Origin: Leptolyngbyaceae cyanobacterium
Lineage (GTDB): Bacteria; Cyanobacteriota; Cyanobacteriia; Phormidesmidales; Phormidesmidaceae
NCBI GenBank assembly: GCA_965263355.1
Contig: CBDHHL010000056.1
Coordinates: 1,280,001 to 1,344,000 of the forward strand
Reading direction: 5' to 3'
DNA: 64,000 bases
Part shown: piece after piece, positions 30,246 to 57,807 of the stretch
Layout: every line of letters starts with the position of its first letter
How positions within the stretch are numbered: position 1 is the first letter of the stretch
Translations under genes and position numbers: made by a program
The notes under the pieces: generated by a model
Told to the model about the DNA's origin: nothing
What the model saw: only the letters and a program-made list of their open reading frames with translations
Databases searched by the model: none

Positions 30246-31484
30246 TTAATTCTTTAATCTACTGGCTAGTGTTTTATCAAAAACTTGCTGCGTAAGACGC
30301 AAAATACGTAGTACGTAGTATAAGAAAAATAAATTTGATGGTAGTTCTATAGTAGCCAAGTCTGCCAATGTTGGTTCTAAGAGCGTTAAACAAAAACGTA
30401 GACGTTGGTGCCAACCAGGCATTAATTTGAGTTGGTGGAGTGTATAGGATACTTCAAATTTTGATTGGAGGGAATAGTGTTCCTGAGTGAAGATACTCTG
30501 TTGGATTGCCTTAGCCACAGTGTGAGTACAAGTGGAGTTCATTAGCTGTTGTTGTATAGTGTCAGGTAATATAACCCCGCATAGATCTTGTGCTAAGCTC
30601 AGACCTAACAAAAAGCTAGGTAACATTCCTAAATCGTTTGATCTGTCAAGTAGATACTCCCAGTTTAGATTTTCCTGTGCTTTTATCAACATTGCCAAAT
30701 CGCAAATCTTACCCAAATGACACCAAAGATCTTCAGCACCTTGGGCACATGAGATAAGGATACTGATCTCTGGAGTAAGACAAATAACTTGACGTCCTCC
30801 AAGATTTATTGTCTGGGTGTGTTGCCAAATCCATCTGACGTCAAACAAATGGGAAAATTGTTTTGATAGAATACCTTGGTGAATATCTAGGAAGAATTGA
30901 CTTTTAGGATTATATAAGCTAAATTCTTTCTGCGACTTAAGATATTCAAACTGTTGTTGCTTACTCAGTTTTGCTAGGTACGTCCTTTCTGTGGCAGCCA
31001 TGATGGTGTCACATTGATATCCATGTTTAACTGCAATATCCCTGAGAACTAAAAAGTCATTTGGGGCAACCAATAAATCGAGGTCGGAGAACATACGAAG
31101 TGATAAATCTCCGTAGGCAATCTGCGCTATTGTTGGACCTTTAAAGGTGATAGATTTAATACTATGGGCATCTAAAATATCCAGAAACGCTATCAGCTCC
31201 TGTACTAGTCTGAAGTTGCGCTGAATAGTCTGTAGGTGTAGTCTACGTAATTCCTGTAGGATATGATCTGGTACCGCTTGAGAAGAGAAAGGAGAAAGAG
31301 ATTTATATAGTAACGGCAGTAATCTATGAAACCGTGCTAGTTTTAGTAGCTTTTCCCAGTCTATTTTTGACTGTTTTATAATCTGCTGTATCTGTGCCTG
31401 ACGATTTAAGTCTGGATCGACATTAATACAGTTCAGCAGTAAGGCTATTTCTGGTTTCAAGGTAGACATATTTAAATCGCCCAT
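30246..31484 (-). CDS. nucleotidyltransferase family protein (lasso-cluster type, PsmN/PadeN-like)
   Basis: IDWEKLL..A..H.L.PLL, FKGP..A...YGD..LR..SDLDLLV, DIH. Confidence 0.85.
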   Translation of the reverse strand: MGDLNMSTLKPEIALLLNCINVDPDLNRQAQIQQIIKQSKIDWEKLLKLARFHRLLPLLYKSLSPFSSQAVPDHILQELRRLHLQTIQRNFRLVQELIAFLDILDAHSIKSITFKGPTIAQIAYGDLSLRMFSDLDLLVAPNDFLVLRDIAVKHGYQCDTIMAATERTYLAKLSKQQQFEYLKSQKEFSLYNPKSQFFLDIHQGILSKQFSHLFDVRWIWQHTQTINLGGRQVICLTPEISILISCAQGAEDLWCHLGKICDLAMLIKAQENLNWEYLLDRSNDLGMLPSFLLGLSLAQDLCGVILPDTIQQQLMNSTCTHTVAKAIQQSIFTQEHYSLQSKFEVSYTLHQLKLMPGWHQRLRFCLTLLEPTLADLATIELPSNLFFLYYVLRILRLTQQVFDKTLASRLKN

Positions 31485-31528
31485 AGGTAGGTGCCCATTT
31501 ATATCAACTTATTAATTAGCAACTATCG

Positions 31529-33358
31529 CTACCAATAGTTTTTAGCCTGAATTTCGAAGAGATAAGCATAGGTACGTTGCTGTCTCATAAGCTCCTGGTG
31601 AGTACCGCTCTCTACTATTCTGCCTTTATCCATTACATAAATCCGATCGGCCATCTTAACGGTTGAAAGGCGATGGGTAATTAAAATAGCGGCCTGATCT
31701 TGAATCAAATGTTTAAAGTTTCGAAATACTTCATATTCTGCTTTAGGATCCATTGCACTGGTAGGTTCATCCAAAACAATCAGTTGAGATTTTCGTAAAA
31801 AAGCTCTTGCTAAGGCTACTTTTTGCCACTGGCCTATACTAAGTTCTTCACCTTGATCAAAAATCTTACCGAGTATAGTGTCATACCCTGAGGGTAATCT
31901 TTGAATTACCTCATGGGCTCCTGCTTTCTTCGCTGCGAATACTACCTCGGGGGCATTTGATGCAAGCTGAGTGTTCCCAATCCAAATGTTATCATGTGCT
32001 GAGAAATGATATTTAGCATAATCTTGGAAAATGACACTTATTTGCTGTCGCATTTCTGTCACGTCAAATGTTCGCAAATCCATGTCATCAACTGTGATGC
32101 GACCACTTGTTGGATCATAAAGACGGCAAAGTAGTTTGATGAGACTGGTTTTTCCTGAACCATTTTCACCTACCAGGGCAACTGTTTCTCCTGGGTTAAT
32201 AGTTAGGGAAATATCTGTCAGGGCTTGGCGTTCAGTACCCTCATATTGAAAACTTACATTCTCAAACCGAATTCCTTTTTTTAAGGTTTTAGGAAATGCT
32301 TTTGGTTGAGCAGGAACTTGGATTTGAGGTTGTAAATCAAGGAATTCATAGAGGTTGGTCAAAAAGAGATTATCTTCATATAAGCCAGACACACTTTTTA
32401 CGAGTACTGCTAGTGCTGTGTGACCACGCTGCAGTGCCTGGTGATAAACCACTAAATCACCCAATTTTAGACGATTATTAAAGGTCTCATAAAGAATAAA
32501 GCCATAGATGGCTGCAATAAAAATACCCGTAATCAATTGGGCTGCTAGCGAATAAATAGCTTTATAGGTGACCAGTTTAAGTTTAGCGTTGTAAATCTTT
32601 TGGCGTAAATGGCGAAAACGTTGATTAAAGAGATCGCCTAAACTAAACAAACGTATTTCCTTGGCAAATAACTCTCCGGTTAATAGCCAGCCCAAATACA
32701 TGGACTGACGGTCAACAGGTGTCCATTTTCGTTGCCAATGATAAAGTTTACGAGAGTAAATTACTTTAACAGCCAAACTTGGTAAGGCTGCTAGTAGTAA
32801 AATGCCTGTGATGCCCCAATGAAGAGTGAGCAGCAAGCCTAGCATGGCGGCTAGAGAGATGAGGTTTTGCCCTACCTGAGCCAGTCTAGTGAGAATTTGA
32901 TTGGGGCGATAGGTAGCTTCTTGCTGAGCACGCTGTAAAGTGTCGTGATAGCGAGCATTTTCATAATAAGCAAGATCTACCTCATAGGATTTGGCATATA
33001 AAATATGCCGCATATAGTCTGATACTTTCTGTGTTTGAGCGACTGCTATCAGCTCAGAAAAAGATGTGCAGAGTAACGTAATTAAGGCAATAAGACTAAT
33101 GGCTAATAAAGGTGGCCATAGTTGGGGGAATACATTAGTGAGCGTGTCTGTTGCATTCGCTGCAACTAATGCCTCAGTAAGTGAATCTACAATGAGTTTC
33201 GTCAGATAGATAGTGGCGGTGGGTAAAAGACCTTGTAATATGATGAGAGCAACCCGAACCACTGTCCACTTTGGACTACTTTGCCAGACCAGTTGTAGTG
33301 CAGGCCGTAGCAAACTAACGAATTTAAGTTTTTTCCTGACATATCTTAAAACTTGCAT
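31529..33358 (-). CDS. ABC exporter, fused permease/ATPase (lasso D-like)
   Basis: TM domain, AKEIRLF, GENGSGKT, LSIGQWQKVALARAF, LDEPTSAMD. Confidence 0.92.
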   Translation of the reverse strand: MQVLRYVRKKLKFVSLLRPALQLVWQSSPKWTVVRVALIILQGLLPTATIYLTKLIVDSLTEALVAANATDTLTNVFPQLWPPLLAISLIALITLLCTSFSELIAVAQTQKVSDYMRHILYAKSYEVDLAYYENARYHDTLQRAQQEATYRPNQILTRLAQVGQNLISLAAMLGLLLTLHWGITGILLLAALPSLAVKVIYSRKLYHWQRKWTPVDRQSMYLGWLLTGELFAKEIRLFSLGDLFNQRFRHLRQKIYNAKLKLVTYKAIYSLAAQLITGIFIAAIYGFILYETFNNRLKLGDLVVYHQALQRGHTALAVLVKSVSGLYEDNLFLTNLYEFLDLQPQIQVPAQPKAFPKTLKKGIRFENVSFQYEGTERQALTDISLTINPGETVALVGENGSGKTSLIKLLCRLYDPTSGRITVDDMDLRTFDVTEMRQQISVIFQDYAKYHFSAHDNIWIGNTQLASNAPEVVFAAKKAGAHEVIQRLPSGYDTILGKIFDQGEELSIGQWQKVALARAFLRKSQLIVLDEPTSAMDPKAEYEVFRNFKHLIQDQAAILITHRLSTVKMADRIYVMDKGRIVESGTHQELMRQQRTYAYLFEIQAKNYW

Positions 33359-33392: not shown

Positions 33393-34256
33393 CTACCCTA
33401 AATCTGTTTTGATGGTGTTGATAAGCTCAGGTAATTGTTGCAATGATTGCCTTTTGGGTAGTTGTGCTACAGGCACTGTTTTTAGTAAATGTTGACACTG
33501 CTCAAAATGAGTCCGCATAAAGTCTGGCCCCACCAGCGTATTCATAGTGCGTGAATAGCTTACCAAGCTCATAAAAGCCTGCGCACCTGAGACAGGTTCT
33601 ATCGTTGTTGACGATTCGCCACCCAATAGATACAGCTTCTTTAAAAGGATAGAGCGCTCAAAGAAATGAGTTTCTACTGGATGGATTCGTTTATTTGTAG
33701 AAGCGCCAAAGTCTATGGGAGAGTTAAGATGCTTTGCAGCAGTCACAGCTGAATCAGGCAAAAGCTTTACGAGTGGATAACTGGGAATAGCAAAGCATCC
33801 CTTCGTTTGAATATCAACGGTTAGGACATCATCGGTAATCAGGTCATGGCCCTGGCTATGAAATGCTGTTGCTAGGGTAGATTTTCCCCAACCTGAATGA
33901 CCTAGAAAAGCAATCGCTTCAGATCCAATGCGAACACTACTGCCATGTAAAATCAGATAACCTCTCTGGCGTAGGATAACAGACATGCCAGCAGCTAGTA
34001 CACTAACTCTGAGAAGTTCAGAATCAACATTTGCAACAGGAGAGACAATTAGCTCGCAGCCCTCCTTAAATAAAAAGTTAGCAATATCAGGTAAAGAGCC
34101 ACATAGTTGATTCGTTGTGTTGAGCTGCTCTTCTTTGCTTAAATCTAAAGTCTCGAGTCTTATATTTACATCTGGTTTATCTGATAGAGGTTGAGTATTT
34201 AGCAGTGATATATCACTTGAAATTGTTAGGCCGTATGCACTAAATAGATAAGCCAT
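33393..34256 (-). CDS. HPr-kinase-like lasso peptide kinase (PadeK/PsmK-like)
   Basis: YGL.I.S, LRQRG..ILHGS, GHSGWGKSTLA Walker A, LITDD; directly downstream of the precursor. Confidence 0.85.
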   Translation of the reverse strand: MAYLFSAYGLTISSDISLLNTQPLSDKPDVNIRLETLDLSKEEQLNTTNQLCGSLPDIANFLFKEGCELIVSPVANVDSELLRVSVLAAGMSVILRQRGYLILHGSSVRIGSEAIAFLGHSGWGKSTLATAFHSQGHDLITDDVLTVDIQTKGCFAIPSYPLVKLLPDSAVTAAKHLNSPIDFGASTNKRIHPVETHFFERSILLKKLYLLGGESSTTIEPVSGAQAFMSLVSYSRTMNTLVGPDFMRTHFEQCQHLLKTVPVAQLPKRQSLQQLPELINTIKTDLG

Positions 34257-34375: not shown

Positions 34376-34400
34376 CAGCCCCCGGATTATCCGAGGGCTG
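34376..34400 (-). terminator. stem-loop directly after lasso precursor
   Basis: Minus strand CAGCCCUCGGA-UAA-UCCGGGGGCUG, 8 nt after the stop, followed by UUAAUAAAA (weak U tract). Confidence 0.65.
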
Positions 34401-34407
34401 ATTTGCC

Positions 34408-34578
34408 TTAAAGCGTGGTGTTAACGATTACATCATTAGAGCCAGTTTGATTAAGACCTAATAATGGATTACCATTAACAATAGTTGCATCAGACTGAGG
34501 TGCGCCTCCTGTAGCCTGAGTAAGCTCCTTTGCATTCCCAAAAGAGTTAAGCTTGGGTGCCTTGTATGCTTTCTTCAT
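34408..34578 (-). CDS. lasso peptide precursor (A), 56 aa, not in ORF track
   Basis: Manual translation MKKAYKAPKLNSFGNAKELTQ-ATGGAPQSDATIVNGNPLLGLNQTGSNDVIVNTTL; leader YxxPxL motif, Gly, Thr at -2; Asp9 in core; GGAG RBS 8 nt upstream; lies between cyclase and kinase. Confidence 0.92.
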   Translation of the reverse strand: MKKAYKAPKLNSFGNAKELTQATGGAPQSDATIVNGNPLLGLNQTGSNDVIVNTTL

Positions 34579-34708: not shown

Positions 34709-36736
34709 TCATCCAGTCTCCTTAGATTCAATAAAAGAGAACCAAATTGCCATTGTCATCGCAGACCAGATAATGCCGCTATCTTTTTCAGAAAGCTCTT
34801 GATTGCTCACAAAAAGCCTGCTGAGCTTTAGAAAGAAACTATAATTAATATAGTTGCTGATTAATGCTTCAGAATCAGAGAGTAGTTTTTCTAATCTAGT
34901 CTTATCAAATTTATTTAAAGTTCCATGAAATGCCTGTGCTGGAGTTTTTTTCCAATGACGCCATTGGATTTCGTGGGGTAATATATTTTCCATGGCTCGT
35001 CTTAAGATTACCCTTGACCAACCTCTATAAAGCTTCTGCTGAGATGGAACAGCAAGACAAAACTCTACTAATCTTTTATCTAAAAATGGATAGCGAGTTT
35101 CAATTGAGAAGGCGTAGCTCATCAGATCCATTATTTCTAAAGGGATTATAAAGAGACCTCCTGAAATTTTTTCCCATTGTCTATATCGAACAACTTGAGG
35201 TCCATCATGCGTAGTTTGTGGCGCTGATGTAGATCTTTTATTTTTTATGAGATCCCAGAAATCTTCTCTAATCAGAGATTGTGATTTATCTTTATCTATT
35301 TCTTTCCTCTGTCTTACCCAGTTATCTCTGCAGAATATCGCAAATTCTTTAAGCAATCCTGGTATCAATCCCTTTAAACAATAATCAACCACCAGTTGAG
35401 CTTTAGAAATGCATAACATGGGAGCAAGGTTATTTATAGCTCTAGCAATTAAAATAATCTTGCGTTGTTCTACTAGTTTTTCTAGTTGAGGTAATCCATG
35501 CTGTTTAGCTAGCAAAGAAAGCGGATAATTAGTCTTCTCACTTAGTTGATTAGCCTCTTGGACAAAAAGGTGCCATTGATTTTGACAGGCAATTTCTGTC
35601 AACCTCATGATTCCATGGGAAACGATGGTATCACCGTCAAACCCATTCAAAAGAATACGAACATCGGTTTGCTTCGCCATTTTATTGATGCCCCACATTA
35701 AATATCCATTGCCAATGGTGGGTTCTTCAACAGACTTAAACATTTCTACGCAGTTTGTCAGTGGTCCTGAGCGATCAGCATGGATGTAGTGGGGGATAAA
35801 ATCGTCATGATTGAGCACAAGGTCAATATATTCACGCTCATCAGACTCAGGAAAGTCATCAAAAATGTTAGAAAACGTATGTAGTTCTTGTTTTCCATGT
35901 TTCTGTAATAGGTTGCGAGCGGTGCAGGCAATAGATGAGGAGTCTAAGCCGCCACTCAGGTGGGAACCAATGGGAAACGCACTACGTAACCGACAATACA
36001 CGGCCTCTGTAAACAGCTTTTTGAAAGTTTTGGCGTAGTCTTCGTCAGATTCTAAGCAAATTTCACGGGTGGGGTCTAATGCCCAATATTTTTGAGGTTT
36101 GGAATATCCTTGAGCTGTGACGATTAGGCTGCTAGCAGGGGGTAAACGCCAAATATCTTGATACGAGGTGATCTCTTTGTCGTCTAGGTGACCTGTGAGA
36201 TAGTCTGCAATTCTTGCTTCGTTGATTTTGCAAGGAATACTTGATAGTCGTATTAATGCTTTAATTTCTGAAGCAAAAAGAAATCGGTGGTCAGATTTAT
36301 AGTAGTAAAAAGGTTTGACTCCAAAATGATCGCGGGCACAAAATAGCTGCTGTCCATCCCAAATTGAAAAGGCGAAGTCTCCAAGTAAATGATCAGGACA
36401 ATCTGTGCCCCATTTTTCATAGGCTGCCAAAATAAATTCGCTATCGGCAATCTTCTCTAATGGTCGATTGGGTAACGTTAGTACTCTAGCTAGCTCATCC
36501 CGGTTGTCAATACGTGCTTCAGCAGTGATCGATAAATTACCCTTTACCAAAGGGAGCCGTTCATTGAGTGATTCCGGGGTTGTCCAGAGCATACGGTGGC
36601 CCATACCGACGGAGCCGTCATACCAGATATCAGAGCTATCAGGACCACGATGGGCTAAAATTTCAACCATTTGATGTAGCTCATTGGCGTCTATTAGCTT
36701 CTGATTTAGATGGTATATACCGACAATACCACTCAT
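34709..36736 (-). CDS. lasso peptide cyclase (C), asparagine-synthetase-like
   Basis: HRGPD, ARIDNR.EL, ARDHFGVKPFYY, LSGGLDSS, GFDGD, PFLDKRLVEF; begins MSGI (no glutaminase Cys); overlaps B2 by 4 nt. Confidence 0.92.
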   Translation of the reverse strand: MSGIVGIYHLNQKLIDANELHQMVEILAHRGPDSSDIWYDGSVGMGHRMLWTTPESLNERLPLVKGNLSITAEARIDNRDELARVLTLPNRPLEKIADSEFILAAYEKWGTDCPDHLLGDFAFSIWDGQQLFCARDHFGVKPFYYYKSDHRFLFASEIKALIRLSSIPCKINEARIADYLTGHLDDKEITSYQDIWRLPPASSLIVTAQGYSKPQKYWALDPTREICLESDEDYAKTFKKLFTEAVYCRLRSAFPIGSHLSGGLDSSSIACTARNLLQKHGKQELHTFSNIFDDFPESDEREYIDLVLNHDDFIPHYIHADRSGPLTNCVEMFKSVEEPTIGNGYLMWGINKMAKQTDVRILLNGFDGDTIVSHGIMRLTEIACQNQWHLFVQEANQLSEKTNYPLSLLAKQHGLPQLEKLVEQRKIILIARAINNLAPMLCISKAQLVVDYCLKGLIPGLLKEFAIFCRDNWVRQRKEIDKDKSQSLIREDFWDLIKNKRSTSAPQTTHDGPQVVRYRQWEKISGGLFIIPLEIMDLMSYAFSIETRYPFLDKRLVEFCLAVPSQQKLYRGWSRVILRRAMENILPHEIQWRHWKKTPAQAFHGTLNKFDKTRLEKLLSDSEALISNYINYSFFLKLSRLFVSNQELSEKDSGIIWSAMTMAIWFSFIESKETG

Positions 36737-37170
36737 CGTTTGACTCCTATTGCAGATAGTGGTTTAAATCGATTCAAATCCTTTAACCAGCCAATGATGA
36801 CCTGGTTTTGATATTCGATCCAGGCATGGGCTTCTAAGTCATTTGAATCACTTTTGGCAACACCAATATGTAACTGATGGTCATAGCCATATCGATTGAG
36901 CAGGAGTTGAGCTGTTAGTGCCTTTACCAAACATTTAGCGCCTCCGGGAGTGTAGTGGCTGCTAAGGGTAACGGCCCATATAATAAATCTCAAAGAGACT
37001 GACTCATGCTCACAGGTCCACACAGAAGTAATCTGTGCTAATTGATGTCTAACTGTATTGAAAGAAAATAGCCACAGGGCAAGACGCAAACTGTTAATCA
37101 GCAAACAAGCGTAGCAAATTACCTTGCGCTCATGCCATGACAAGCTCCATAGCTTAGATAGACGTCTCAT
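36733..37170 (-). CDS. lasso peptide leader peptidase (B2), transglutaminase-like
   Basis: KCLVKAL (Cys), L.IGV, AHAWIE (His). ATG at 37170 overlaps the end of B1. Confidence 0.92.
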   Translation of the reverse strand: MRRLSKLWSLSWHERKVICYACLLINSLRLALWLFSFNTVRHQLAQITSVWTCEHESVSLRFIIWAVTLSSHYTPGGAKCLVKALTAQLLLNRYGYDHQLHIGVAKSDSNDLEAHAWIEYQNQVIIGWLKDLNRFKPLSAIGVKR

Positions 37171-37462
37171 CACTGACCTCAATCAGACAAGCTGCTTTCA
37201 TATCTTCAAGAATCCGTGTAAGGTCTTGTTTGCAGATGTCGGGTTCTACATCATATTCTGCAACTAATTTTTGATATATATCGTCAAAGGAACAAGGTTG
37301 CTGAATGAGTTCCCAGATACGTGCTCCTACTTCATTCAGGCCATAGTAAATACCTGAAGTCAAATTTAATATGATTGCTTCTCCCCCTAACTCAGATGCA
37401 ATTTGATCTTGAGCTGGTGAAATAGTCGCAATTGATGAAATATCTCCAATCTGTAAAGACAT
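37154..37462 (-). CDS. lasso peptide RiPP recognition element (B1), PqqD family
   Basis: GEAIILNL.SG.YYGLNEVGARIWELIQ...EYDV.....DL...L. Confidence 0.92.
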   Translation of the reverse strand: MSLQIGDISSIATISPAQDQIASELGGEAIILNLTSGIYYGLNEVGARIWELIQQPCSFDDIYQKLVAEYDVEPDICKQDLTRILEDMKAACLIEVSDETSI

Positions 37463-37661: not shown

Positions 37662-38999
37662 TTAAGAGGCTTGCTTGAGGCATAGCTCATGCCAGCGCAG
37701 ACCAATTAACACGATACTGGTTAATGCAAAGCCAGGTTCTTCCATCAGAGTAAAAATGAAACCATTAACTAAAAAGTTCAGTACTAAGAATCGAGATACA
37801 TCATCTCTACAGGTTTTTCTCCAGGTTATGAACCATAAGGCGATATAACTAATCAAACCTAAAAATCCTAAATCTCCCCAGATGCCAGCCCAACCCCATA
37901 ACGGTGAGAAAAAGCTAGAGTCTAGGTAATGCCCTTGCCAGGCTTCCCATACTGCCTCACTAGCTGGATGGATTGTTGCGCCTAGTGACCCAACCAAGGA
38001 CCAATAATCTTTAAGCATCCAACCGCCAATGCGACCAATGGTATGTCCAGGACCTAAGCCCAGTAGCCAGTGGAAAGCAGAGGTATAGTAGGTAGGAATA
38101 ATTCTTAAAGGTTCAGTTTTCAAGAGGGTAGCATCACCATTAGGACCGTAAATCTCAGGGCGAATCCAAGTTTGATAAGCATGAAAAAGTTCTACATTAT
38201 AAATGCACCAGTAGAATGCATAACCGATTAAAAGTGCTGCAATGATATATTGAAAGGCGACTCTAAGGTCGGTAATCTTACTAAGGATCAGACATCCCCA
38301 AGCCAGAATCGCTACAAAAAGTACTTGTTTAGCATCTGCAAATAAGATTTGGCTTAGGACTGCGCCTAGTACAGAAATACGTACCCAAAGTGGTACCGTT
38401 TTGGCACTAACGTAGTAATACAGGCCAAATACTAAAGACGCACTAGCACCGACTACATGGCCGCCGGAGGATAAGTAAAAGACACCCTGAACATTGTCTT
38501 CAAGGGTCATGCGGGTATGTCTGAGCAGCCCCGTTTCCAAGCCAACTTTTTGGCTCAGTGCTAATCCAATATGAATAGCTCCAAAGCCAAGAATCCACTT
38601 TTTGAAACGGCTGAGAGATTCTGTTGTGAATGGAATAGAAATTATCGCTGTTAAAAAGATAAAGGGTTCTGAAATAATCATGAGCCCAAGAAAGACGTTA
38701 ACTAGCCCTGCATTATTTAGTAACGCACTGGCGGTTGCGATCGCAAACAATCCCATTAATCCACTAATCAATGCCTTCACAATAGTCAGCTGCTGTCGGT
38801 TTTGTCGTCGACTGCTAAACACAACCAAACTACAGGCAACAGGTGCCACCATAAAATGAACAAAATTTATTGGAGCCGGAGCCCCAAGTGACTGAAGAAT
38901 TCTTGGAAAAAAGGCAGCTGCAAATGCAATTATTAACAAGCGTGAGCTTGAAATAAAGCCTGCTTCTGCTTTGGAACGAGGGAGAGATTGAGTCTGCAT
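37662..38999 (-). CDS. polytopic membrane protein, probable Wzy polymerase / O-antigen-ligase-like
   Basis: About 11 hydrophobic segments, large late periplasmic loop, LLGLGPG and GDLG.LG motifs; last gene of the GT run. Confidence 0.6.
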   Translation of the reverse strand: MQTQSLPRSKAEAGFISSSRLLIIAFAAAFFPRILQSLGAPAPINFVHFMVAPVACSLVVFSSRRQNRQQLTIVKALISGLMGLFAIATASALLNNAGLVNVFLGLMIISEPFIFLTAIISIPFTTESLSRFKKWILGFGAIHIGLALSQKVGLETGLLRHTRMTLEDNVQGVFYLSSGGHVVGASASLVFGLYYYVSAKTVPLWVRISVLGAVLSQILFADAKQVLFVAILAWGCLILSKITDLRVAFQYIIAALLIGYAFYWCIYNVELFHAYQTWIRPEIYGPNGDATLLKTEPLRIIPTYYTSAFHWLLGLGPGHTIGRIGGWMLKDYWSLVGSLGATIHPASEAVWEAWQGHYLDSSFFSPLWGWAGIWGDLGFLGLISYIALWFITWRKTCRDDVSRFLVLNFLVNGFIFTLMEEPGFALTSIVLIGLRWHELCLKQAS

Positions 39000-40225: not shown

Positions 40226-40714
40226 ATCTACACAATCTCGCTCAAAAGTCAGGGCAGTTTATGAGATATATTCTAAACACCTGAAATGTTGCCATCCAGA
40301 CCTTTCAAGGTGTGCTGGCAATAAGTTTTACATTTGGACGAAGCTATCATTTGGTAAGGATTGGGACCTTACTCTGTAATTTAGACTGGCAGGTCAAATG
40401 TACTATTTTTAGATAATTTTGGCTAGTTTAGAGCTACGTAAGAAGTAATACTCCAAAAAAATAAACTATTGCTATCAGGAACCTTGAATTTATAGACAAA
40501 GCTTTCTTAAACTTTGAAAGCTAGGTTTATTTCCTAGAGAGGCTTTTGAAAATTATTAAAAATATTCATTTGACCTTGAAAGGGCTGATGTTGATATCCT
40601 AAAATACCTATACGGAAAAATAAATACTGCACTTATCTGCAGAAACTCTCTAGTAGTAGCTCGTGAGCTACCTACTATGAACAACCCTCAGTTAATACAT
40701 TTCCTTGATACAAG

Positions 40715-47401: not shown

Positions 47402-47652
47402 AATTTTTTCCTAGGGATAAGTAATAAATTTCTCTCAAGTTGGTGGGTAAGCTATGACAATAGTTAGAGCTATTGCTTAACCTCACACGATGACCCTTGG
47501 CACAATAGATACCGATAGCTAATTTTTTCACGTTCTCACAGCTTCAATTATCTATTCGATTTTAGAAAATGTATAAGTAATCAGTATTTATTTAAGTATT
47601 AGTAGATGTTGGTTGAGCAAATTGCCAAATCCTTATATGTCTAAGCTATTGC

Positions 47653-48891: not shown

Positions 48892-48996
48892 GGATCTGAC
48901 TACCTACTACTAATGGTTTAATAAAGGAACAATAACAGTACAAGTCTTCTCAGTTAGAAAATATTTAAAAAAGTTGTTTCTCAAAAAGGAATGAGA

Positions 48997-50151
48997 TTAG
49001 GAGATTCCTTGAACAATAGTTTGAGCTACGTTTTCCCAGGTGAATTTTTTTAGAACCGTTGCTTTACCTGCCTGACCCATTTGAGATGTTTGTTCTGGGT
49101 TATTAATAGCTTCAATAATAGAGCTTGCCAAATGTTTGGGCTTCATCGGTGGCGCTAGCCATCCTGTGATACCATTTTCAACAATTCCTGAGACAGATCC
49201 GGAGTCATAAGAAATAACCGCTAAACCTGTAGCCTGGGCTTCTGCAATAGCTCGTCCAAATGACTCCGCCCTAGACGGGAGTATGGCAAGGTGTGCCCAA
49301 TCGAGTTCTTTTCTTAGCTCATCAGGCTCTAAACGCCCTAAAAAGAGCACATTTTTTTCAAGGCCATATTGATTAATGGCATGTTTGACTTTTTCAACCT
49401 CACCCCAACCTGCAATTTTTAGTTGCCAATTATGATAGCCATCTTCTGTAATGGAATCTAGGGCTTCAAGTACATCAAAGATACCTTTAATAGGAGCTAG
49501 AGAACCATAGAAAATAAAGTTTGATATTTCTGTATAAGGTAGGCGTACAGACGACTTGAGAAAAATAGAATCTATTCCTCTGTAAGTAATGTGAATACAC
49601 TGATCATCTATAGCAAATAGGTTGATAAGTTCCTGGCGTGTAAACTCAGAAGATACAAACACAGCATCCGCTGCTTTAAGCATACGCCAGCGGAAATATC
49701 GATTGCTCAGATTTGAAAGCCATCGCATCTTGCGGGTACGATTAAGCAAAACCTCATAAGATGGATGGGCTGCGATCATACCAAAAGTAATATTATGCTT
49801 GGCTAAATAACCTCTTAAAAAGGCGGCCTCATAATCCCAACATAAGACTGCATGAAGGGGAGTTTTGCTATGCAGGTTTATGATTGCTTGCCTAAATGAC
49901 ATAGCAGTAAAGAAATAATGCCCCTTTTGTTTAGATACGGGAATAACTGAAATTGAGCTATCAGCCAGAGTAAATGGCGCATCATCAGAGATATGTAACA
50001 GAGTAACTTCTATTCCTAACTTTTCTAGATGACGTGCAATTTGGAGACAGCTTCTTGCGCCGCCGCCAGGATCTCTAAAGGGAGATGCAGGATAGGTGAT
50101 AGCTATTCTGAAAGCTTTATGCATATCTAATAAAAGAGAACAAAGTCTCAC
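48997..50151 (-). CDS. glycosyltransferase family 4
   Basis: PGGG, G.L.PIKG, PSRAESFG..IAEAQA.GL.VI. Confidence 0.9.
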   Translation of the reverse strand: MRLCSLLLDMHKAFRIAITYPASPFRDPGGGARSCLQIARHLEKLGIEVTLLHISDDAPFTLADSSISVIPVSKQKGHYFFTAMSFRQAIINLHSKTPLHAVLCWDYEAAFLRGYLAKHNITFGMIAAHPSYEVLLNRTRKMRWLSNLSNRYFRWRMLKAADAVFVSSEFTRQELINLFAIDDQCIHITYRGIDSIFLKSSVRLPYTEISNFIFYGSLAPIKGIFDVLEALDSITEDGYHNWQLKIAGWGEVEKVKHAINQYGLEKNVLFLGRLEPDELRKELDWAHLAILPSRAESFGRAIAEAQATGLAVISYDSGSVSGIVENGITGWLAPPMKPKHLASSIIEAINNPEQTSQMGQAGKATVLKKFTWENVAQTIVQGIS

Positions 50152-50224
50152 CTCAAGTTGGTAATCTCTAAGCAGAACTTTAATGCTGAATTGTGCAAAT
50201 AAGCTAAGTCACTACGACAAAAGC

Positions 50225-51100
50225 CTATTTAGATACTCTGGTGCATAAAAAGTTACCCGAAATATTTTCACCTAATTTTTTAATAGAAGTTAGCTTATAG
50301 TTGTTAAAAGGAAGATACTCGATGCGTGAAATGGCATAACCTGTTTTTGCAAGTAGTTCAAAGACCTCCTTAGAGCTACTACCTAACTTAATAAGATGAT
50401 CGTTAGTTACTTCAATCAATAAATTTTCTATTTTTCCTTCTCTCAAAGTGTTAAGCATCCCTTTGAGCACTAACATTTCTGCACCTTCTACATCGATTTT
50501 CAATAGTTTTATATGGTCAATGGTGTGATTCTCAATGTAATTATCAAAGGTTACCATTTTTACAGTTTCCTTTGACTTATCAGGATAATTCTCAGAGTTT
50601 CGGACTATGCTAGCACCACCGCCATTTTTACCATTTACCCCTGAAAGAACTATTTCACCATTAGAATCAGAAATAGCGAGATTTTCAGTTACTACATTAT
50701 TGAAGTTGTTGATTTCGACATTTCTATTCAAATGAGCAAAGATATTACTTCCTGGTTCAAAGGCTATAACTTTCCCTTCAGAGCCAACAATATTTCCTAC
50801 CAATACTGTATACCAGCCAATATTTGCCCCAATATCAACAAAAACATCTCCTGAATTTAAGATTTTTTTCAGTATCTTTGCTTCTCGAAGTTCGTAGAAT
50901 CCACGAAAGAATAAATTTCGCTGAATATATTCTTTATAGTCTTTGATTTCGAACTTCCCCTTCAAATTATCTACTGATATAGAGATGATAGTTGGTTCTT
51001 CCGGATATTTGATATTTGAATCATGCCTCTCAATCAGCTTAATAATTCTATTTGGAATTAGCTTTGAAGATGTAAATCTCCTCAGTATTGATGCTTTCAT
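50225..51100 (-). CDS. FkbM family methyltransferase
   Basis: FVDIGANIG, IAFEP, KIDVEGAE. Confidence 0.92.
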   Translation of the reverse strand: MKASILRRFTSSKLIPNRIIKLIERHDSNIKYPEEPTIISISVDNLKGKFEIKDYKEYIQRNLFFRGFYELREAKILKKILNSGDVFVDIGANIGWYTVLVGNIVGSEGKVIAFEPGSNIFAHLNRNVEINNFNNVVTENLAISDSNGEIVLSGVNGKNGGGASIVRNSENYPDKSKETVKMVTFDNYIENHTIDHIKLLKIDVEGAEMLVLKGMLNTLREGKIENLLIEVTNDHLIKLGSSSKEVFELLAKTGYAISRIEYLPFNNYKLTSIKKLGENISGNFLCTRVSK

Positions 51101-51527: not shown

Positions 51528-52970
51528 TTAATGATTATTCTTTGTAATAAACGAAGTAATCTCCTCGATTAGGATAGGCTCACAATAGTACAGCATAAAT
51601 AGATACAAAAAAGAGCCAACTGAATATGTAACTATTAGCAGTTGACTATTCGTTAAGTGACTTGAAAGAAGAGATCTTAAGAGCCCTAAGATAGCTATTA
51701 AGATTGATGATACGAGAAGTGGAGAAATATATTGTTTTATCATTTCTTTTCTGCTCATTCTCAAAAAAACACAACTGATATAAATACTAATTGGAGCAGT
51801 GAGCAATGCCATAGCTACAAAGCCTTGCGAAACAGCAACTATTCCTTTATTAAAGACAAGAAAGAATACAGCAATATTAGCTGCTGTTTCTATAAGTCTA
51901 ATCTTTAAGGCTAATCCTGGTTTACCAATAGCAACAATCAATGTGCTATTTAGATATGTCAATGAGTGTATAATTCCCAAAATGGCTAGCCATCGCATGA
52001 CAGATATACTATCTTGCCATTGCTCTCCAAAGAAAACATTGACGATTTCAGGTGAAGTTAAAGCAACAGAACTAAATATAGGAAAAGAAAAAAGACTAAT
52101 AATATGTATTAACTTTGAAAAGAATTTTCTTAGTTTATTTATATCATTCTGCATTCTTGAGAAGGCAGGTACAGAGACTCGTTGTATAATCCCCATTAAA
52201 GATTCAGTTAGCAGTAATAGTAATCGGTAGGCAATGCTATATGTACCAAGTGCAGTAGTCCCTAAATAATAACCAATCAAAAAGTCATCCGCTCTTCTAT
52301 AGAAGAAATTTAGGCATTGTAAACCAATAACATTAGCGCCAAAACTAAACAACTCCCTAAAATGTTTAAGTGAAATCTTTAAACCAGGTCGCCAACGTGC
52401 AATATGCCAGAGCATAAGTAATCTGACACAGCTATGGGTAATTGACTTTAAAACTAGACTCCAAACACCCAATCCCCCAATTGCAGCAGCAATTCCAACA
52501 ATACCTGAGAGAAATGTAGCAGTTAAAGAGCGAGCTGAAAGAGATTTAAAGTCTAGATTTCTGATTAAGATTGCTTCTTGAACCTTGCTAAAGCCAGCTA
52601 ATATAAACCCAACTGAAAGCCATCTAATAACTGGTTTTAACAAGGGCTCATTCATCAAGTGAGCAATACTTCCAGCGATTGATATCATACATACAGTAAT
52701 GATGCCGCTTACGCTGAGGCTCACCCAAAAAGCTGTATTCAAATGTTCTTCTTCAATCTCTTTTCGCTGAACAATTGCTTGGGAGAAACCTTGGTCAATA
52801 AATAACTGTAAAAAATCTAGAAATACGGACGATAAAGCGACAAGGCCAAAGGCTTCTGGCTCTAGTAAGCGAGCTAAAGCAAAAAACACAGCCGCTGAAA
52901 TAAGACGTTGGCCCCAGCTTTCAAGTGCAGACCATAAGACTCCATGAACAGTTTTGAGTTTTATATTCAT
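51528..52970 (-). CDS. wzx: Wzx polysaccharide flippase (PST family)
   Basis: LARLL.PE.FGL, D.G...A..Q, G.GVWSLV, W.P, D...IG..LG...LG.Y..A. Confidence 0.9.
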   Translation of the reverse strand: MNIKLKTVHGVLWSALESWGQRLISAAVFFALARLLEPEAFGLVALSSVFLDFLQLFIDQGFSQAIVQRKEIEEEHLNTAFWVSLSVSGIITVCMISIAGSIAHLMNEPLLKPVIRWLSVGFILAGFSKVQEAILIRNLDFKSLSARSLTATFLSGIVGIAAAIGGLGVWSLVLKSITHSCVRLLMLWHIARWRPGLKISLKHFRELFSFGANVIGLQCLNFFYRRADDFLIGYYLGTTALGTYSIAYRLLLLLTESLMGIIQRVSVPAFSRMQNDINKLRKFFSKLIHIISLFSFPIFSSVALTSPEIVNVFFGEQWQDSISVMRWLAILGIIHSLTYLNSTLIVAIGKPGLALKIRLIETAANIAVFFLVFNKGIVAVSQGFVAMALLTAPISIYISCVFLRMSRKEMIKQYISPLLVSSILIAILGLLRSLLSSHLTNSQLLIVTYSVGSFLYLFMLYYCEPILIEEITSFITKNNH

Positions 52971-53199: not shown

Positions 53200-54096
53200 C
53201 TATTTATGATGAGAGGCTAACTTGAGTTTTTGTATCATCTTTCTATCCTTACAACAAAGAACATCATGATACTTTGTACTTTCTGGCGTAAATTCTTGAA
53301 TAGGATTTAATATCGTTTCACAGTTTTGAGTATCAATGCCAAAAAGTGAAAAGCCATAATGTTCCATCTTTTGAAACAGAGAGATTTTTTCTTCTAATGG
53401 AATATGTGTGTTTTCAAATACGATAAATTTGAGTTTGTTTTGTTCTAGTAACCATGGTAATAGGTAAAGTTCTGCACCCTCTACATCAACTTTGGCACCA
53501 AAGTTTCTATCTGTTAATAGAGGTGGTAGATAGGTTTGAATATTTTTTACTTTCAAAGAAATCTTATCTGTTGCTTCTGAATCTTTGAATACAAAACTTG
53601 CTTCACCCGTGTGCTCACTAGAGCGACACATTTCAAGAACACCATCCTGGTTCATCAAGCCAACATCATGTAAAACCACGTTAGACAAGCTATTATTATG
53701 AATAGCATCCTTTAATCTATGACAAAGCTCAGGCTGAGGTTCAAAAAGATGAATTTCTCCATCAGAGCCTACAATATCCTGACACATTAAGCCAACTACA
53801 CCATAATTTGCACCGATATCTAAGAAAATGTCTCCTGGGCTCAGTAAAGATTGACATGTTTCAATAGTTTCTGGATAGGCTGAACCATATATATAGAGCA
53901 TTCTGCCGTTATAATCTTTAACATCCACAGTGATAGAGATGCCATTGTTAAGATGAGTCAGTATCTGAGTGTTTTGCTTTGGTAGTAAGAACTTGATATA
54001 ACGGCTATTGGACACTCGCTTATAAAGCGATCTTCCATTAGGTGAATATTTTAGAAAATATCGGATGATGTTTAAGATAGTTAGATTTAGGTTCAT
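53200..54096 (-). CDS. FkbM family methyltransferase
   Basis: FLDIGANYG, FEPQ, KVDVEGAE. Confidence 0.92.
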   Translation of the reverse strand: MNLNLTILNIIRYFLKYSPNGRSLYKRVSNSRYIKFLLPKQNTQILTHLNNGISITVDVKDYNGRMLYIYGSAYPETIETCQSLLSPGDIFLDIGANYGVVGLMCQDIVGSDGEIHLFEPQPELCHRLKDAIHNNSLSNVVLHDVGLMNQDGVLEMCRSSEHTGEASFVFKDSEATDKISLKVKNIQTYLPPLLTDRNFGAKVDVEGAELYLLPWLLEQNKLKFIVFENTHIPLEEKISLFQKMEHYGFSLFGIDTQNCETILNPIQEFTPESTKYHDVLCCKDRKMIQKLKLASHHK

Positions 54097-54159
54097 GTGA
54101 TTGTTTAGTTAGTGATTTTGCTGCTTACTTAATACAATTAGTGCTCTCTCAATACTTTT

Positions 54160-55173
54160 TCAGGATATTTCAGTATTTCTGATTCTTATATGAGTTTTAT
54201 CTGTGAGGTGAGGTTTCAACTGTTCAATTAAATCTGCTGTTCTAATTTTGACGCCTCGATTATGTAGATGATACTGAGAATCATAAAATAAGGAAATATC
54301 ATACATAGCCTGCTCTGGTGTCCCGATGATGGGAACTTCAAGATGTGCATAAAAATCTGCGATACTTTTGAAAAGGGATTGAGTATTGGGTTGTTGATAA
54401 ATCTCAAAACGAATTGTATTTGGCCATGTGGCTAATACTTCAATATCATTATCACGACAATATTTGATAAATTTCTCGATACTACTTAACCCTTTACTCT
54501 CAGATACGTAATGACTTTTTATCAAAGATTGCCAAGGCGGTAATTTGTCGCGCTTCTCAATTTGCTCTGCCGTCATGGTTTCTTCAAACATAATCGTTGC
54601 ATCACCATATTCATTCATACGGGAAAATTGTTCTTCTAAATCGATGTCCTCATTTTTGTCTCTAGACTCAATCCCTTCTACTAGTCTTAGAAAGCTTACA
54701 CCTCCCATGAATTTCATCTGAGTGTCCCACCCAGATTGTTTAAAGTAGGGATAGTCGCGTGCAAATATATAATCTATCGCAGTATTATTCGGCTCTCCAT
54801 TATAGAGGTAGCTCTCATACTCAAGCGGTAGTAGTACAACATCTCCAGGCTTAACCCATTTTTTTGCATTGTAGAAAATATAATCAATTCCTAGAGCAAA
54901 AGCAATACCGCCATTGAAACAGTTGATTTCAATCTCTTCTTCAATTTGCTGACAGCTCAGTCCTTGAAGTGAATTAGAACCAGAAATAAATACTAGTTTA
55001 TTCTGATCCTTAGGCATTTTTTGATATAGCTCATGCTTAACCAAAAGCGTCTTATGGCGAATTTCTGAACTTTTGGTTGGTGCACCAACCTGAGCATATA
55101 CTACACCTACATAAGTAAGACATAGAATAATTAACCCAGCAATAACACCTTGAAAGTATTTTCCGTATTTCAT
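54160..55173 (-). CDS. membrane-anchored SGNH/DltD/AlgJ-like partner of MBOAT
   Basis: N-terminal TM, SGSNS, FYD..YHL...G...T; 2 nt downstream of the MBOAT gene. Confidence 0.6.
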   Translation of the reverse strand: MKYGKYFQGVIAGLIILCLTYVGVVYAQVGAPTKSSEIRHKTLLVKHELYQKMPKDQNKLVFISGSNSLQGLSCQQIEEEIEINCFNGGIAFALGIDYIFYNAKKWVKPGDVVLLPLEYESYLYNGEPNNTAIDYIFARDYPYFKQSGWDTQMKFMGGVSFLRLVEGIESRDKNEDIDLEEQFSRMNEYGDATIMFEETMTAEQIEKRDKLPPWQSLIKSHYVSESKGLSSIEKFIKYCRDNDIEVLATWPNTIRFEIYQQPNTQSLFKSIADFYAHLEVPIIGTPEQAMYDISLFYDSQYHLHNRGVKIRTADLIEQLKPHLTDKTHIRIRNTEIS

Positions 55174-55175
55174 GC

Positions 55176-56681
55176 TTAGAAGTTAAAGTATAGAAACTCA
55201 CTACTAGGTGCCCGAAGAGCACACTTGACTGTCAAAAAAAGCAGTCCAGAAAGCGATAGACCAAATATGAAATTAGGCCGCCAATTTAAAGCTTTCCAAG
55301 TATTATCGGCTTTTTCAGATAGCTCGGTAATTGTGGGCTTGTAGTTCTGCATTAGCTGACTTATATTAGGCAATATTAAAACCCACAAGCATAGACCTAC
55401 AATCTGTATCAAGGTCTGTGGATAAACCTCTGAGAGTGATACTTGAAAGCCATTCAGACCTAGCATCGATTTCCATATATTCACTGCACTAGAAACTGTT
55501 TCCGCTCGAAATATTACCCAGCTAAAGACTACTAGTCCAAACGTTAGTAACTGTGCAGGTAATTTACTTATCCAATTTCCTTCTTTTGTGCTTTTATCAA
55601 ACAAATGTTTGGTTAACTTTCTCCAGACATGGTTTATGCTCAGGTAGAATCCATGAATACCCCCCCAAAGCACAAAAGTCCATCCAGCTCCGTGCCATAA
55701 TCCTCCAAGCAACATCGTAATCATCAAATTGCTAATTTGGCGTACCTGCCCATGACGATTGCCGCCTAGGGGAATATATAAATAGTCACGTAAGAAATTA
55801 GACAGTGTGATGTGCCAGCGACGCCAAAAGTCTGAAATATCAGTTGCTTTGTAAGGAGAATTAAAGTTGAGAGGCAATACAATTCCAAACATTCTGGCAA
55901 TACCCAATGCCATCTCTGAATAGCCAGAAAAGTCAAAGTACAGCTGAAAACTATAAGCAAGTGCTCCTATCCATGCCTGGCAAAGCGTTAGCGAATCTCC
56001 CCCTAATGAAGATGTAAACATCGTATTTGCAATAGGAGCCATATTGTCTGCAATAACAATTTTCTTGTAGAGTCCAGCACAAAAAATTGTTACGCCAACA
56101 GTAAAATCTTCGATATTAAACTGATATATTTTCTTATTCCTAAACTGATGCATCATCTCCTTGTGATGCACAATCGGTCCTGCAATCAGCTGAGGAAAGA
56201 AAGTCACAAATAGACAATAATCGAGAAAACTATATTCTTTAGTCTCACCACGATAGGCATCTACTAAATATGAAATTTGCTGAAATGTAAAAAAGGAAAT
56301 TGCTAAAGGTAATAGGATTTCAGGGTTATGTAAATCTAACCCTAGTAAAGCATTGAGTGATTCTATAAAGAAGTTAGCGTATTTAAAGTAACCTAGAAGA
56401 GCAATATTGATTATAATTCCACCTATTAGATAAGTTTGCTTTATTCGTATTTTTTTAGATGGTTGAATATTGCTAATATGATTTCCTAGAAAAAAATTAA
56501 ATCCGATAGAGCCTAAAATTAAAAATAAATAGTTTGGATTCCACCAGCTATAAAAAAATAAAGATGCTGCTGTAATTAATATGATAGATATCTTACGCAG
56601 TCCTATTAAGTTAGAACTAAAAAATAACAGTAGCGTTACAGGTAGAAATACAAATATAAATTCAGTAGAATTAAAGAGCAT
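55176..56681 (-). CDS. MBOAT O-acyltransferase (AlgI/DltB-like)
   Basis: MLFNS.EF, LPLAISFFTFQ, FFPQLIAGPI, DFSGYS, FWRRWHITLS, GLWHGA. Confidence 0.94.
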   Translation of the reverse strand: MLFNSTEFIFVFLPVTLLLFFSSNLIGLRKISIILITAASLFFYSWWNPNYLFLILGSIGFNFFLGNHISNIQPSKKIRIKQTYLIGGIIINIALLGYFKYANFFIESLNALLGLDLHNPEILLPLAISFFTFQQISYLVDAYRGETKEYSFLDYCLFVTFFPQLIAGPIVHHKEMMHQFRNKKIYQFNIEDFTVGVTIFCAGLYKKIVIADNMAPIANTMFTSSLGGDSLTLCQAWIGALAYSFQLYFDFSGYSEMALGIARMFGIVLPLNFNSPYKATDISDFWRRWHITLSNFLRDYLYIPLGGNRHGQVRQISNLMITMLLGGLWHGAGWTFVLWGGIHGFYLSINHVWRKLTKHLFDKSTKEGNWISKLPAQLLTFGLVVFSWVIFRAETVSSAVNIWKSMLGLNGFQVSLSEVYPQTLIQIVGLCLWVLILPNISQLMQNYKPTITELSEKADNTWKALNWRPNFIFGLSLSGLLFLTVKCALRAPSSEFLYFNF

Positions 56682-56937
56682 GACTTAAATTCAATTTCTC
56701 AGTCCTATTGACTTTTCGATTAACCACTTTCTATGATAAAGAGACTTTAAAGACTTTTGCATAGAAAAAGAGTTTTTTGGGAAGTCCCTTCAAATTAAAA
56801 CTAAACTGTGATTTAAGCAATCTCCACAGTTTTCTATTACTGCCTAAGCAGCTTGCTGAAAATTTATGACTATACATACTCAACAAGCTGCTAAAAGGTT
56901 TCCGAATTAAGCTGCTATAACAAGTTAATCAACAAGA

Positions 56938-57807
56938 CTACCTTGTTATTCGCTGCTTCAGAGTAACTTCGGGATTAATCCAGCCAAATCTGGGCTCTAA
57001 ACCCAGCTTAATTTTCACCAGCTGTTTAGCTGCTAACAGAAGAAACAATGGACTCGTTTTTGCATAGCGTTTCCATAACCTCCGAGGCTCTTGTATTAAA
57101 CGATACAACCACTCAAGTCCACTCTTCTGAATCCAAACAGGAGCCCACTTCTTTTCACCAGCAAAGATCGGAAATACGCCACCTAGACCAACCATTACTG
57201 CCTGGACTCGGTCCTTATGCTCATGCATCCACCACTCTTGCTTAGGGCAACCTAATGACACCAGCACCAACCCAGCACCACTATCATTGATCTCCTGCAC
57301 TAACGCCTCATCCTCATCCCGAGTTAACGGCCTAAACGGTGGCGATACCATTCCCACCACGTTTAAAGAAGGAAATTCTACCTTCAACCGTTGTTCCATG
57401 CCATATAACACTCCAGGGGTGGAGCCTAAGAAAAAGACACTAATATCTTGCTGAGCCGCTTTCTTACACAAACTCAACAAAATATCCATCCCCGCTACCC
57501 GATCCTGCTTGCGCCTTCTGAGACGACTAGTCACCCATACCAGCGGCATACCATCCGGCGTCAGCATATCCGCCTGGTACAAAACCCTAGCAAACCCCTC
57601 ATGGGCCTTTGCCTCAATTAACATATGCACATTGGCCACACACACGACCTTACTAAGTCGCTGATGTGCCCAGCCCAGCATAGTATCAATTTGCCTAGAA
57701 AACGGTTCTGCGGTTACAGGAAAACTTATTACACTTTGCGTTTCCAGGGTTTGATTATTCTCCTGCCAAAGGTCTATAAGGCTGGACTTAGTAGTCGAAT
57801 ACAGCAT
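56938..57807 (-). CDS. WecB/TagA/CpsF family glycosyltransferase (GT26)
   Basis: ANVH, PDGMP, RVAG.D, PPFR, LGCPKQE, GLEW.YRL.QEPRRLWKRY. Confidence 0.94.
   Translation of the reverse strand: MLYSTTKSSLIDLWQENNQTLETQSVISFPVTAEPFSRQIDTMLGWAHQRLSKVVCVANVHMLIEAKAHEGFARVLYQADMLTPDGMPLVWVTSRLRRRKQDRVAGMDILLSLCKKAAQQDISVFFLGSTPGVLYGMEQRLKVEFPSLNVVGMVSPPFRPLTRDEDEALVQEINDSGAGLVLVSLGCPKQEWWMHEHKDRVQAVMVGLGGVFPIFAGEKKWAPVWIQKSGLEWLYRLIQEPRRLWKRYAKTSPLFLLLAAKQLVKIKLGLEPRFGWINPEVTLKQRITR

Follow-up and report, generated by a model that had tools for sequence, protein, structure and literature searches.

A seven-gene lasso peptide cassette that includes an HprK-like kinase and a nucleotidyltransferase lies among the genes of a Wzx/Wzy-type surface polysaccharide in a 64,000-nucleotide stretch of DNA from a Leptolyngbyaceae cyanobacterium (contig CBDHHL010000056.1; the whole stretch is called the window below). 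The linkage between lasso and glycan genes is real and non-random, and it follows the kinase/nucleotidyltransferase type of cassette rather than lasso clusters in general. We give about even chances to the reading that the product is an exported phospho(glyco)-lasso peptide, modified on an internal core serine (Ser26) and acting with the surface polysaccharide layer rather than priming it; the peptide would then likely be a partner of the polysaccharide coat rather than an antibiotic. An earlier reading of this DNA (the sequence-only reading) had offered the arrangement as possibly unreported. The pairing itself is already in print for Bacilli, as PMC13381572 describes lasso-type clusters that lie within capsular polysaccharide loci, gives their role as unknown and raises a biofilm idea as speculation. 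What is new here is the internal tail serine as predicted site and the controlled link to the kinase/nucleotidyltransferase type. The locus thus extends the lasso-polysaccharide pairing to cyanobacteria, with controls, and for kinase/nucleotidyltransferase-tailored lasso peptides, whose role PMC13381572 states to be unknown, it points to one residue, core Ser26.

Linkage of lasso cassettes with glycan genes

The controlled comparison covered 401 Pseudomonadota genomes, 50 of which held a lasso leader peptidase (B2) over cut-off. Sixty of the 65 B2 matches were taken with about 10 kb on each side, leaving out four second matches near one already taken and one at a contig start, and the control consisted of 40 windows of 20 kb drawn at random from those contigs; glycan genes were called with local profiles. 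They lay near 17 of the 24 loci carrying both kinase and nucleotidyltransferase, against none of the 18 canonical cyclase-only loci (a count that rests on the local profiles, the 263 unlabelled open reading frames (ORFs) of these loci lying outside the Pfam/NCBIfam check) and 5 of the 40 random windows (on which, unlike the lasso loci, the profiles were not iterated). Kinase-only loci had them in 2/5 cases and other B2 loci in 4/13. When the nucleotidyltransferases were clustered at 40% identity, 10/17 clusters had glycan genes (Fisher p 6e-4 vs random). B2-like genes that stand alone, their 20-kb window holding no cyclase, were also found among glycan genes (L089, L092 and L117), which suggests that the module of RRE (the RiPP recognition element, RiPPs being peptides made by the ribosome and modified after translation), peptidase and kinase, not the ring, tracks with glycan genes. 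In the two best of five plasmid matches, from a haloarchaeon and an alphaproteobacterium, the cassette lay among flippase and glycosyltransferase genes.

Closer relatives were sought with a metagenome scan using an alignment of 57 cyclases, from which the best 80 of 522 loci were kept, and a profile search of genome contigs yielded one further locus. In a FastTree tree of 119 cyclases, drawn without branch support values, the window grouped with L009, L010, L012, L013, L014, L015, L023 and 13 named cyanobacterial proteins; the best named matches of its cyclase were all cyanobacterial (45-49% identity). All four clade loci that are 10 kb or longer had glycan genes, the three other clade loci being too short for flanks. 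Homologues of the window's own glycan genes stood beside the cassettes of relatives: the Wzy-like gene (36-61% across L010, L014 and L023, the values being 61, 42 and 36%), three GT4 genes (66 and 46%; 66 and 53%; 54%), the class I methyltransferase (62%) and WecG (57% beside a clade cassette, and 58% in L011). The Wzy-like homologues directly adjoined the nucleotidyltransferase in 3/4 long clade loci. In L010, L014 and L023 the Wzy-like/GT4 block is on the opposite strand and converges on the nucleotidyltransferase; adjacency is therefore conserved and co-transcription, put forward from the window alone, is not.

Of all 26 loci that reach 10 kb (L001 and 25 from metagenomes), a core glycan gene was found in 11/14 with a nucleotidyltransferase, the cases of L001 and L026 being weak, and in 3/12 in which none was seen, several of these cut by the contig end; this count is descriptive only, as the profile seeds were drawn from those loci, and 135/194 flank ORFs were checked in Pfam. 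The linkage for which the sequence-only reading had called for a synteny survey was borne out for glycan genes, which were present in 4/4 clade loci and, in the Pseudomonadota sample, exceeded both controls (17/24 vs 0/18 and 5/40). For exosortases, no linkage to a lasso cassette was seen in the other loci examined with a weak single-sequence profile.

Several features of the relatives were noted in passing. In L011 two cassettes stand in tandem and differ in precursor type, while L010 carries three near-identical precursor copies (12151-13551) and L023 two identical ones (5045-5638). The L023 cassette contains the gene of an unnamed protein of 407 aa that carries an RRE at its C-terminal end (8653-9876), followed by a methyltransferase (10112-10756) that is 62% identical to the product of 46772-47401 in the window's glycosyltransferase run. 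Response regulators lie two to three genes upstream of the cassette in L011 and L014. The window encodes an unnamed coiled-coil protein (21964-23127, minus strand) with homologues (24-25%) divergent from B1 in L025 (7-1734) and L026 (6838-8592); the L026 copy is Wzc-like by local profile, not by Pfam or NCBIfam.

A conserved serine inside the precursor tail

The precursor has a 21-aa leader with a YxxPxL motif (Y5, P8, L10) and Thr at -2 (T20). The predicted core is of 35 aa, with an Ala1-Asp9 ring (Asp9 = D30), a 26-aa tail containing Ser26, and a C-terminal Leu. Across 50 aligned precursors Y5, P8, L10, T20 and D30 were invariant or nearly so. The NF033528 model (35 positions) aligned to precursor residues 1-30 only, leaving the tail serine motif outside the match. 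A precursor profile search, biased toward that motif because the profile itself contains it, gave 81 homologues, in whose alignment Asp9 (81/81), Gly3 (78), Gly15 (78), Ser26 (80) and Asp28 (74) stood out among variable residues. Residue 1 was Val or Ile in 65/81, and a C-terminal Ser was found in just 10/81. The motif [GD]-S-x-[DN]-hydrophobic was present in 69/81 tails, or 30/39 after redundancy filtering, compared with a mean of 3.7 and a maximum of 9 in 500 shuffled runs. Where loci were picked by cyclase alone, the motif was found in 8/8 clade loci (the window counted) vs 1/42 others; 11 of these 42 have a precursor with C-terminal Ser.

The sequence-only reading had carried over phosphorylation of a C-terminal serine from the paeninodin and pseudomycoidin type. 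This analogy does not hold, as that acceptor is missing from the window precursor. Because the C-terminal Ser is missing, the Ser26 column is 80/81 conserved and the motif count is 8/8 vs 1/42, we predict from the alignments that core Ser26 is the kinase site. The known kinases PadeK, ThcoK, SyanK and PsmK modify the C-terminal Ser (as described in PMC9266682 and PMC6993621), and for non-terminal serines BsfK acts on ring Ser3 (PMC10368454) and LppK on Ser3 (PMC13381572). On this prediction, lasso peptides would have a third place of phosphorylation, the internal tail, beside the C-terminal and ring serines.

In most members of the precursor family (P0121-P0201) the first core residue is Val or Ile. 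The distal part of the tail bears a Cys pair in many of them, though there is none in the window peptide. PTPA-CTERM surface proteins of the window were considered as sharing the acceptor motif: one matches, but another paralogue has Asn at that position and there is no lasso leader, so that the match is likely chance.

Cassette enzymes and the proposed route

The kinase matches its Pfam and NCBIfam families weakly, and its H104, K125, D142 and D143, the His-Lys-Asp-Asp motif of HprK-like peptide kinases as given in PMC9266682, are kept in 19-20/20 homologues. In the nucleotidyltransferase, D134 and D136 (the metal-binding Asp pair, DxD) are kept in 16/16 homologues, in an alignment without PsmN itself. 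The proposed analogy of this enzyme pair to the pseudomycoidin type is upheld by these residues. A sequence search of solved structures gave only weak HPr-kinase matches for the kinase and none for the nucleotidyltransferase. Directly after the precursor stop lies the strongest 40-nt hairpin among the 17 gaps scanned (81-nt stretch, -25.8 kcal/mol, z -3.82, 1/200 shuffles equally good), which probably acts on the precursor mRNA, stabilising or attenuating it.

We propose that B1 would bind the leader, the kinase would phosphorylate Ser26 of the precursor, B2 would cleave after the Thr-Gln leader end and C would close the Ala1-Asp9 ring. The nucleotidyltransferase would probably add one or more hexoses to the phosphate, as with PsmN, using the locus's nucleotide sugars, and the ABC pump would export the modified peptide. 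The calculated monoisotopic mass is 3403.72 Da for the cyclic core, 3483.69 Da with a phosphate, 3645.74 Da with phosphate and one hexose, and 3807.79 Da with phosphate and two hexoses. The priming transferase, glycosyltransferases, Wzx, the WaaL/Wzy-fold protein and Wza/Wzc would make the polymer itself on a lipid carrier. The peptide would act in the sheath or exopolysaccharide (EPS) as a non-covalent component of the matrix, a modulator or a signal. PsmN is required for the hexosylation of pseudomycoidin. Consistent with a role in the coat, PMC13381572 reports that lasso and EPS genes are synchronously induced in Paenibacillus. The earlier suggestion that the peptide may not be an antibiotic agrees with PMC6993621, where pseudomycoidin- and paeninodin-producing cells are described as lacking antibacterial activity.

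Several observations weigh against this interpretation. No Wzy-type gene was found within about 10 kb in 7/24 kinase-plus-nucleotidyltransferase loci; these seven glycan-negative loci stayed negative in NCBIfam, where 102/126 unlabelled ORFs of 11 loci were checked, and two of them lie in lipid A operons. In the cyclase tree the canonical lasso loci form almost one clade, and the canonical contrast is therefore close to a single evolutionary event. Of the motif counts, only that from cyclase-selected loci (8/8 against 42) is free of the bias of a profile that contains the motif. The conserved Ser26 could instead serve threading or target binding, and Ser8 and five Thr are alternative phospho-acceptor sites in the core. 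PMC11912497 states that PsmN activity has not been demonstrated in vitro. The guanine-cytosine (GC) content is 0.40 in the lasso block and 0.37 in the glycosyltransferase block, compared with 0.47, and HIP1 sites number 0 over 7.2 kb and 1 over 19 kb, compared with 8 over 20.8 kb (also 0 in the 7-kb wecG-wza-wzc block); such low GC and few HIP1 sites in both blocks are as in a variable island.

As a separate observation, the kinase-plus-nucleotidyltransferase lasso-type genes of two Pseudomonadota genomes (L091 and L141) are located within lipid A operons (lpxA, lpxI, lpxB) or next to them.

Comparison with known systems

The closest counterparts are pseudomycoidin (psmCAKB1B2ND of Bacillus pseudomycoides, described in PMC6993621) and paeninodin. 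The window shares with them the seven gene functions, Ala1, the ring acceptor at position 9, the His-Lys-Asp-Asp kinase and the DxD nucleotidyltransferase, and with the paeninodins the co-location with polysaccharide loci reported in PMC13381572. It differs in having no C-terminal Ser and in a 26-residue tail with a conserved internal Ser26. Unlike the paeninodin type, which the Discussion of PMC13381572 gives as having a Trp leader motif and being restricted to Bacillota, the window leader has Tyr5 and the host is a cyanobacterium. Unlike pseudomycoidin, its gene order is B1-B2-C-A-K-D-N (D being the ABC exporter, K the kinase and N the nucleotidyltransferase), in a host with Wza/Wzc and an exosortase.

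The Bsf cluster of Bradymonas sediminis also has A, B1, B2, C, D, K and N, and its kinase targets a non-terminal serine (PMC10368454), but this is ring Ser3, and its leader has Ile at -2 (Ile or Val in the Bsf type), whereas the window peptide has Gly3 (Gly in 78/81 homologues) and Thr at -2. Linear polyphosphorylated peptides (LPP), as set out in PMC13381572, share the RRE, HprK-like kinase, NTP transferase, MsbA-like pump and location in capsular polysaccharide loci, and for them too a biofilm role is offered as speculation; they use a SipW-like peptidase and no cyclase, unlike the window cassette, which has B2 and C. No signal peptidase was matched among the window genes scanned with Pfam/NCBIfam. 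Davasins demonstrate that serine-glycosylated lasso peptides exist (PMC11912497); their IgtG is described as a deacetylase/GT2 protein that works on the mature lasso, and no GT2 was found in the window's run.

The window precursor and cyclase exceed the cut-offs of the cyanobacterial lasso family NF033528/NF033535, for which no characterised product was found in our literature search. That search was thin on subscription journals, and within it nothing was found on a cyanobacterial lasso-glycan linkage or on an internal tail serine. PMC6993621 mentions a cyanobacterial cluster with a glycosyltransferase, PMC7533575 gives glycosyltransferases as accompanying 36% of rumen lasso clusters, and PMC12188702 provides background on the exosortase-EPS link. 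Cyanobacterial clusters are annotated in PMC9332814 and PMC9967302, the consulted portions of which characterise no product, and PMC9967302 calls such peptides underexplored.

Alternative explanations

The strongest alternative, which we consider unlikely, is that the product is an independent peptide for competition or signalling and that the cassette has gathered in polysaccharide loci as recombination hotspots or as a source of nucleotide sugars. The GC content and scarcity of HIP1 sites in both blocks agree with such a passenger, as do the mosaic identities among cassette genes, the opposite orientation of the glycan genes in relatives, the 7/24 loci without glycan genes and the paeninodins, which the Discussion of PMC13381572 describes as gained and lost many times. 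A passenger would not, however, account readily for canonical lasso clusters never lying near glycan genes (0/18), for orthologous glycan genes that remain adjacent despite rearrangement in distant cyanobacteria, or for the pairing being found in an archaeon, Proteobacteria and Bacilli as well.

Less probable again is a regulatory role, in which a phospho-peptide signal would tune polysaccharide synthesis or export and the sugar or nucleotide would be only a steric lock or an on/off switch. In the clade loci examined, no receptor, isopeptidase or regulator gene was conserved beside the cassette, which argues against it, although the hairpin suggests high precursor output, the long tail varies around fixed motifs, and PMC6993621 proposes a steric-lock idea.

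A further possibility concerns the Wzy-like gene next to the cassette. Its product matched no Pfam or NCBIfam family; among 85 homologues one touches PF04932 (E 0.008), the Atlas lists a cluster named for O-antigen ligase in which 15% of members have PF04932, and its best named match is from Leptolyngbya sp. PCC 7375 (76%). A profile of the protein gave nothing significant against the sequences of solved structures. Its AlphaFold model (pLDDT, the predicted local distance difference test, 94.6) matched the WaaL O-antigen ligase (Foldseek E 4.8e-5; Z 18.0, root-mean-square deviation 5.3, 362 aligned), followed by SEDS polymerases at Z about 9. The model thus assigns the protein a WaaL/Wzy fold, in keeping with the label of Wzy/ligase-like that it had been given; this defines the structure, not the polymerase or ligase reaction, as fold alone does not tell the two apart.

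Such an enzyme might, after export, move the lipid-linked glycan onto phospho(glyco)-Ser26, making the peptide a covalent anchor or acceptor and yielding a RiPP-polysaccharide conjugate. We consider this improbable. It would fit the WaaL ligase as best fold match of the adjacent gene, the Wzy-like homologues directly beside the nucleotidyltransferase in 3/4 long clade loci, and the presence inside the L023 cassette of a counterpart (62% identity) of a methyltransferase of the window's glycosyltransferase run. Against this, the gene is the sole Wzy/WaaL-type gene seen in the window, yet the Wzx-Wza-Wzc pathway needs a polymerase; the four PTPA-CTERM proteins and cyanoexosortase C offer alternative glycan partners, and the neighbouring glycan genes vary widely between phyla. 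For Paenibacillus, PMC13381572 reports that it could assign no mass to the peptide, its authors noting that neighbouring polysaccharide genes could modify the peptide, and this too would suit a conjugate. The more specific version, in which the lasso peptides of this cyanobacterial clade would be protease-proof acceptors, kinase and nucleotidyltransferase would make a Ser26-phospho-sugar stub that receives the ligated glycan after export, and the conjugate would nucleate or tether the sheath, is just as improbable; if true, it would reveal a peptide-polysaccharide conjugate.

Wzx/Wzy polymers are assembled on a lipid carrier. A primer or carrier role for the peptide, as suggested by the sequence-only reading, is unlikely because this machinery (priming transferase, Wzx, the Wzy/WaaL-fold protein, Wza and Wzc) is complete in the window and the polymer needs no peptide carrier. 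The opposite orientation of the glycan genes in three relatives also speaks against a primer. Of that interpretation as a whole the glycan-gene link, the catalytic residues and the doubt about an antibiotic are supported, and the C-terminal serine, primer role, conserved co-transcription and novelty are not; its anchor version keeps the slight probability given above.

Layout of the locus

The window proteins were scored against Pfam and NCBIfam, and the translated ORFs were also inspected. The seven cassette genes (37462-30246, minus strand) and the glycan run were confirmed where they had been placed, with all cassette ORFs intact. A public contig covering 34481-39980 is identical to the window and possibly comes from the same source sample.

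Table 1. Features of the lasso cassette and the surrounding polysaccharide locus, with window positions.
Feature	Position	Strand	Evidence
B1, RRE (PqqD)	37154..37462	-	PF05402 70.4 bits (cut-off 23.4); NF033536 78.4, just below cut-off 80
B2 leader peptidase	36733..37182	-	NF033537 97.6 bits (cut-off 33)
C, lasso isopeptide-bond cyclase (asparagine-synthetase-like)	34709..36736	-	NF033535 848 bits (cut-off 525)
Precursor A	34408..34578	-	NF033528 lasso_cyano 37.9 bits (cut-off 33); family alignment
Strong hairpin directly 3' of precursor stop	34376..34400	-	Folding vs shuffles
HprK-like peptide kinase	33393..34256	-	Weak PF07475 (E 6e-6) and TIGR04352 matches; conserved catalytic residues
MsbA-like ABC exporter	31529..33358	-	Pfam/NCBIfam
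PsmN-like nucleotidyltransferase (NTP_transf_5)	30246..31484	-	PF14907 178.9 bits
WaaL/Wzy-fold membrane glycosyltransferase	37662..38999	-	Predicted structure; homologues in relatives
Six GT4, acyltransferase_3, two FkbM and one class I methyltransferase	38999..51100	-	Pfam/NCBIfam; orthologues beside cassette in relatives
Wzx flippase	51528..52970	-	PF13440 316 bits
FkbM methyltransferase, unnamed single-transmembrane protein, MBOAT acyltransferase	53200..56681	-	Pfam; single-transmembrane protein without family name
WecG/TagA (GT26) glycosyltransferase	56938..57807	-	TIGR00696 over cut-off
Wza export protein and Wzc co-polymerase/tyrosine kinase	58847..62649	+	Pfam/NCBIfam; divergent from glycosyltransferase run
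Cyanoexosortase C (CrtC)	29176..30096	+	NF033464 376.7 bits, over cut-off; convergent on nucleotidyltransferase
Three PTPA-CTERM surface proteins	25787..28890	+	NF033465 above cut-off for each of the three
Priming polyprenyl glycosylphosphotransferase (Bac_transf); HpsJ-like protein of the CrtC-associated type	23883..25311	+	PF02397 229 bits; NF050019 over cut-off

The cassette had been placed at the end of the glycan run. It sits instead inside a complete Wzx/Wzy-type locus, because the divergent wza-wzc block and the convergent block of priming transferase, PTPA-CTERM genes and CrtC (23883-30096) flank it on both sides. The former block also has what we take, from its translation, to be a gmd-like gene. 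Priming transferase, glycosyltransferases, Wzx, Wza and Wzc were all identified in the window by Pfam/NCBIfam, and the cyanoexosortase C/PTPA-CTERM system is likewise present, with CrtC, PTPA-CTERM targets and HpsJ-like C all over cut-off.

The glycan genes follow one another on the same strand as listed, but the run is not unbroken: intergenic gaps of 378-489 bp lie within it, and a single transcript is therefore not established. The 199-bp gap between the Wzy-like gene and B1 folds ordinarily (z 0.42 and 0.04), in agreement with the earlier view that it has no strong hairpin. A promoter/terminator scan gave no entry in this gap, its promoter predictions being at chance level (38 vs 48 expected), and an Rfam search gave zero matches.

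Other features of the window were recorded. The partner gene of the MBOAT acyltransferase (54160-55173, minus strand) encodes the unnamed single-transmembrane protein, with Atlas leads to PF27429/PF07611 in 11-18% of members; it is presumably the periplasmic half of an acyl-transfer pair with MBOAT. A perfect AT-rich 48-bp palindrome (44121-44168) overlaps the end of one GT4 gene. The region 9806-19929 has phnF, a gene for a PhnA-like hydrolase and two sets of ABC transporter genes for phosphonate/phosphite, none of them related to the lasso finding. The fourth PTPA-CTERM-type protein (137 aa, 20892-21305, minus strand) lies apart from the tandem trio and was identified by its terminal sorting motif alone. 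Between the second and third genes of that trio lies a degenerate copy of the 3' end of the first (27803-27882, plus strand; 83% over 80 nt).

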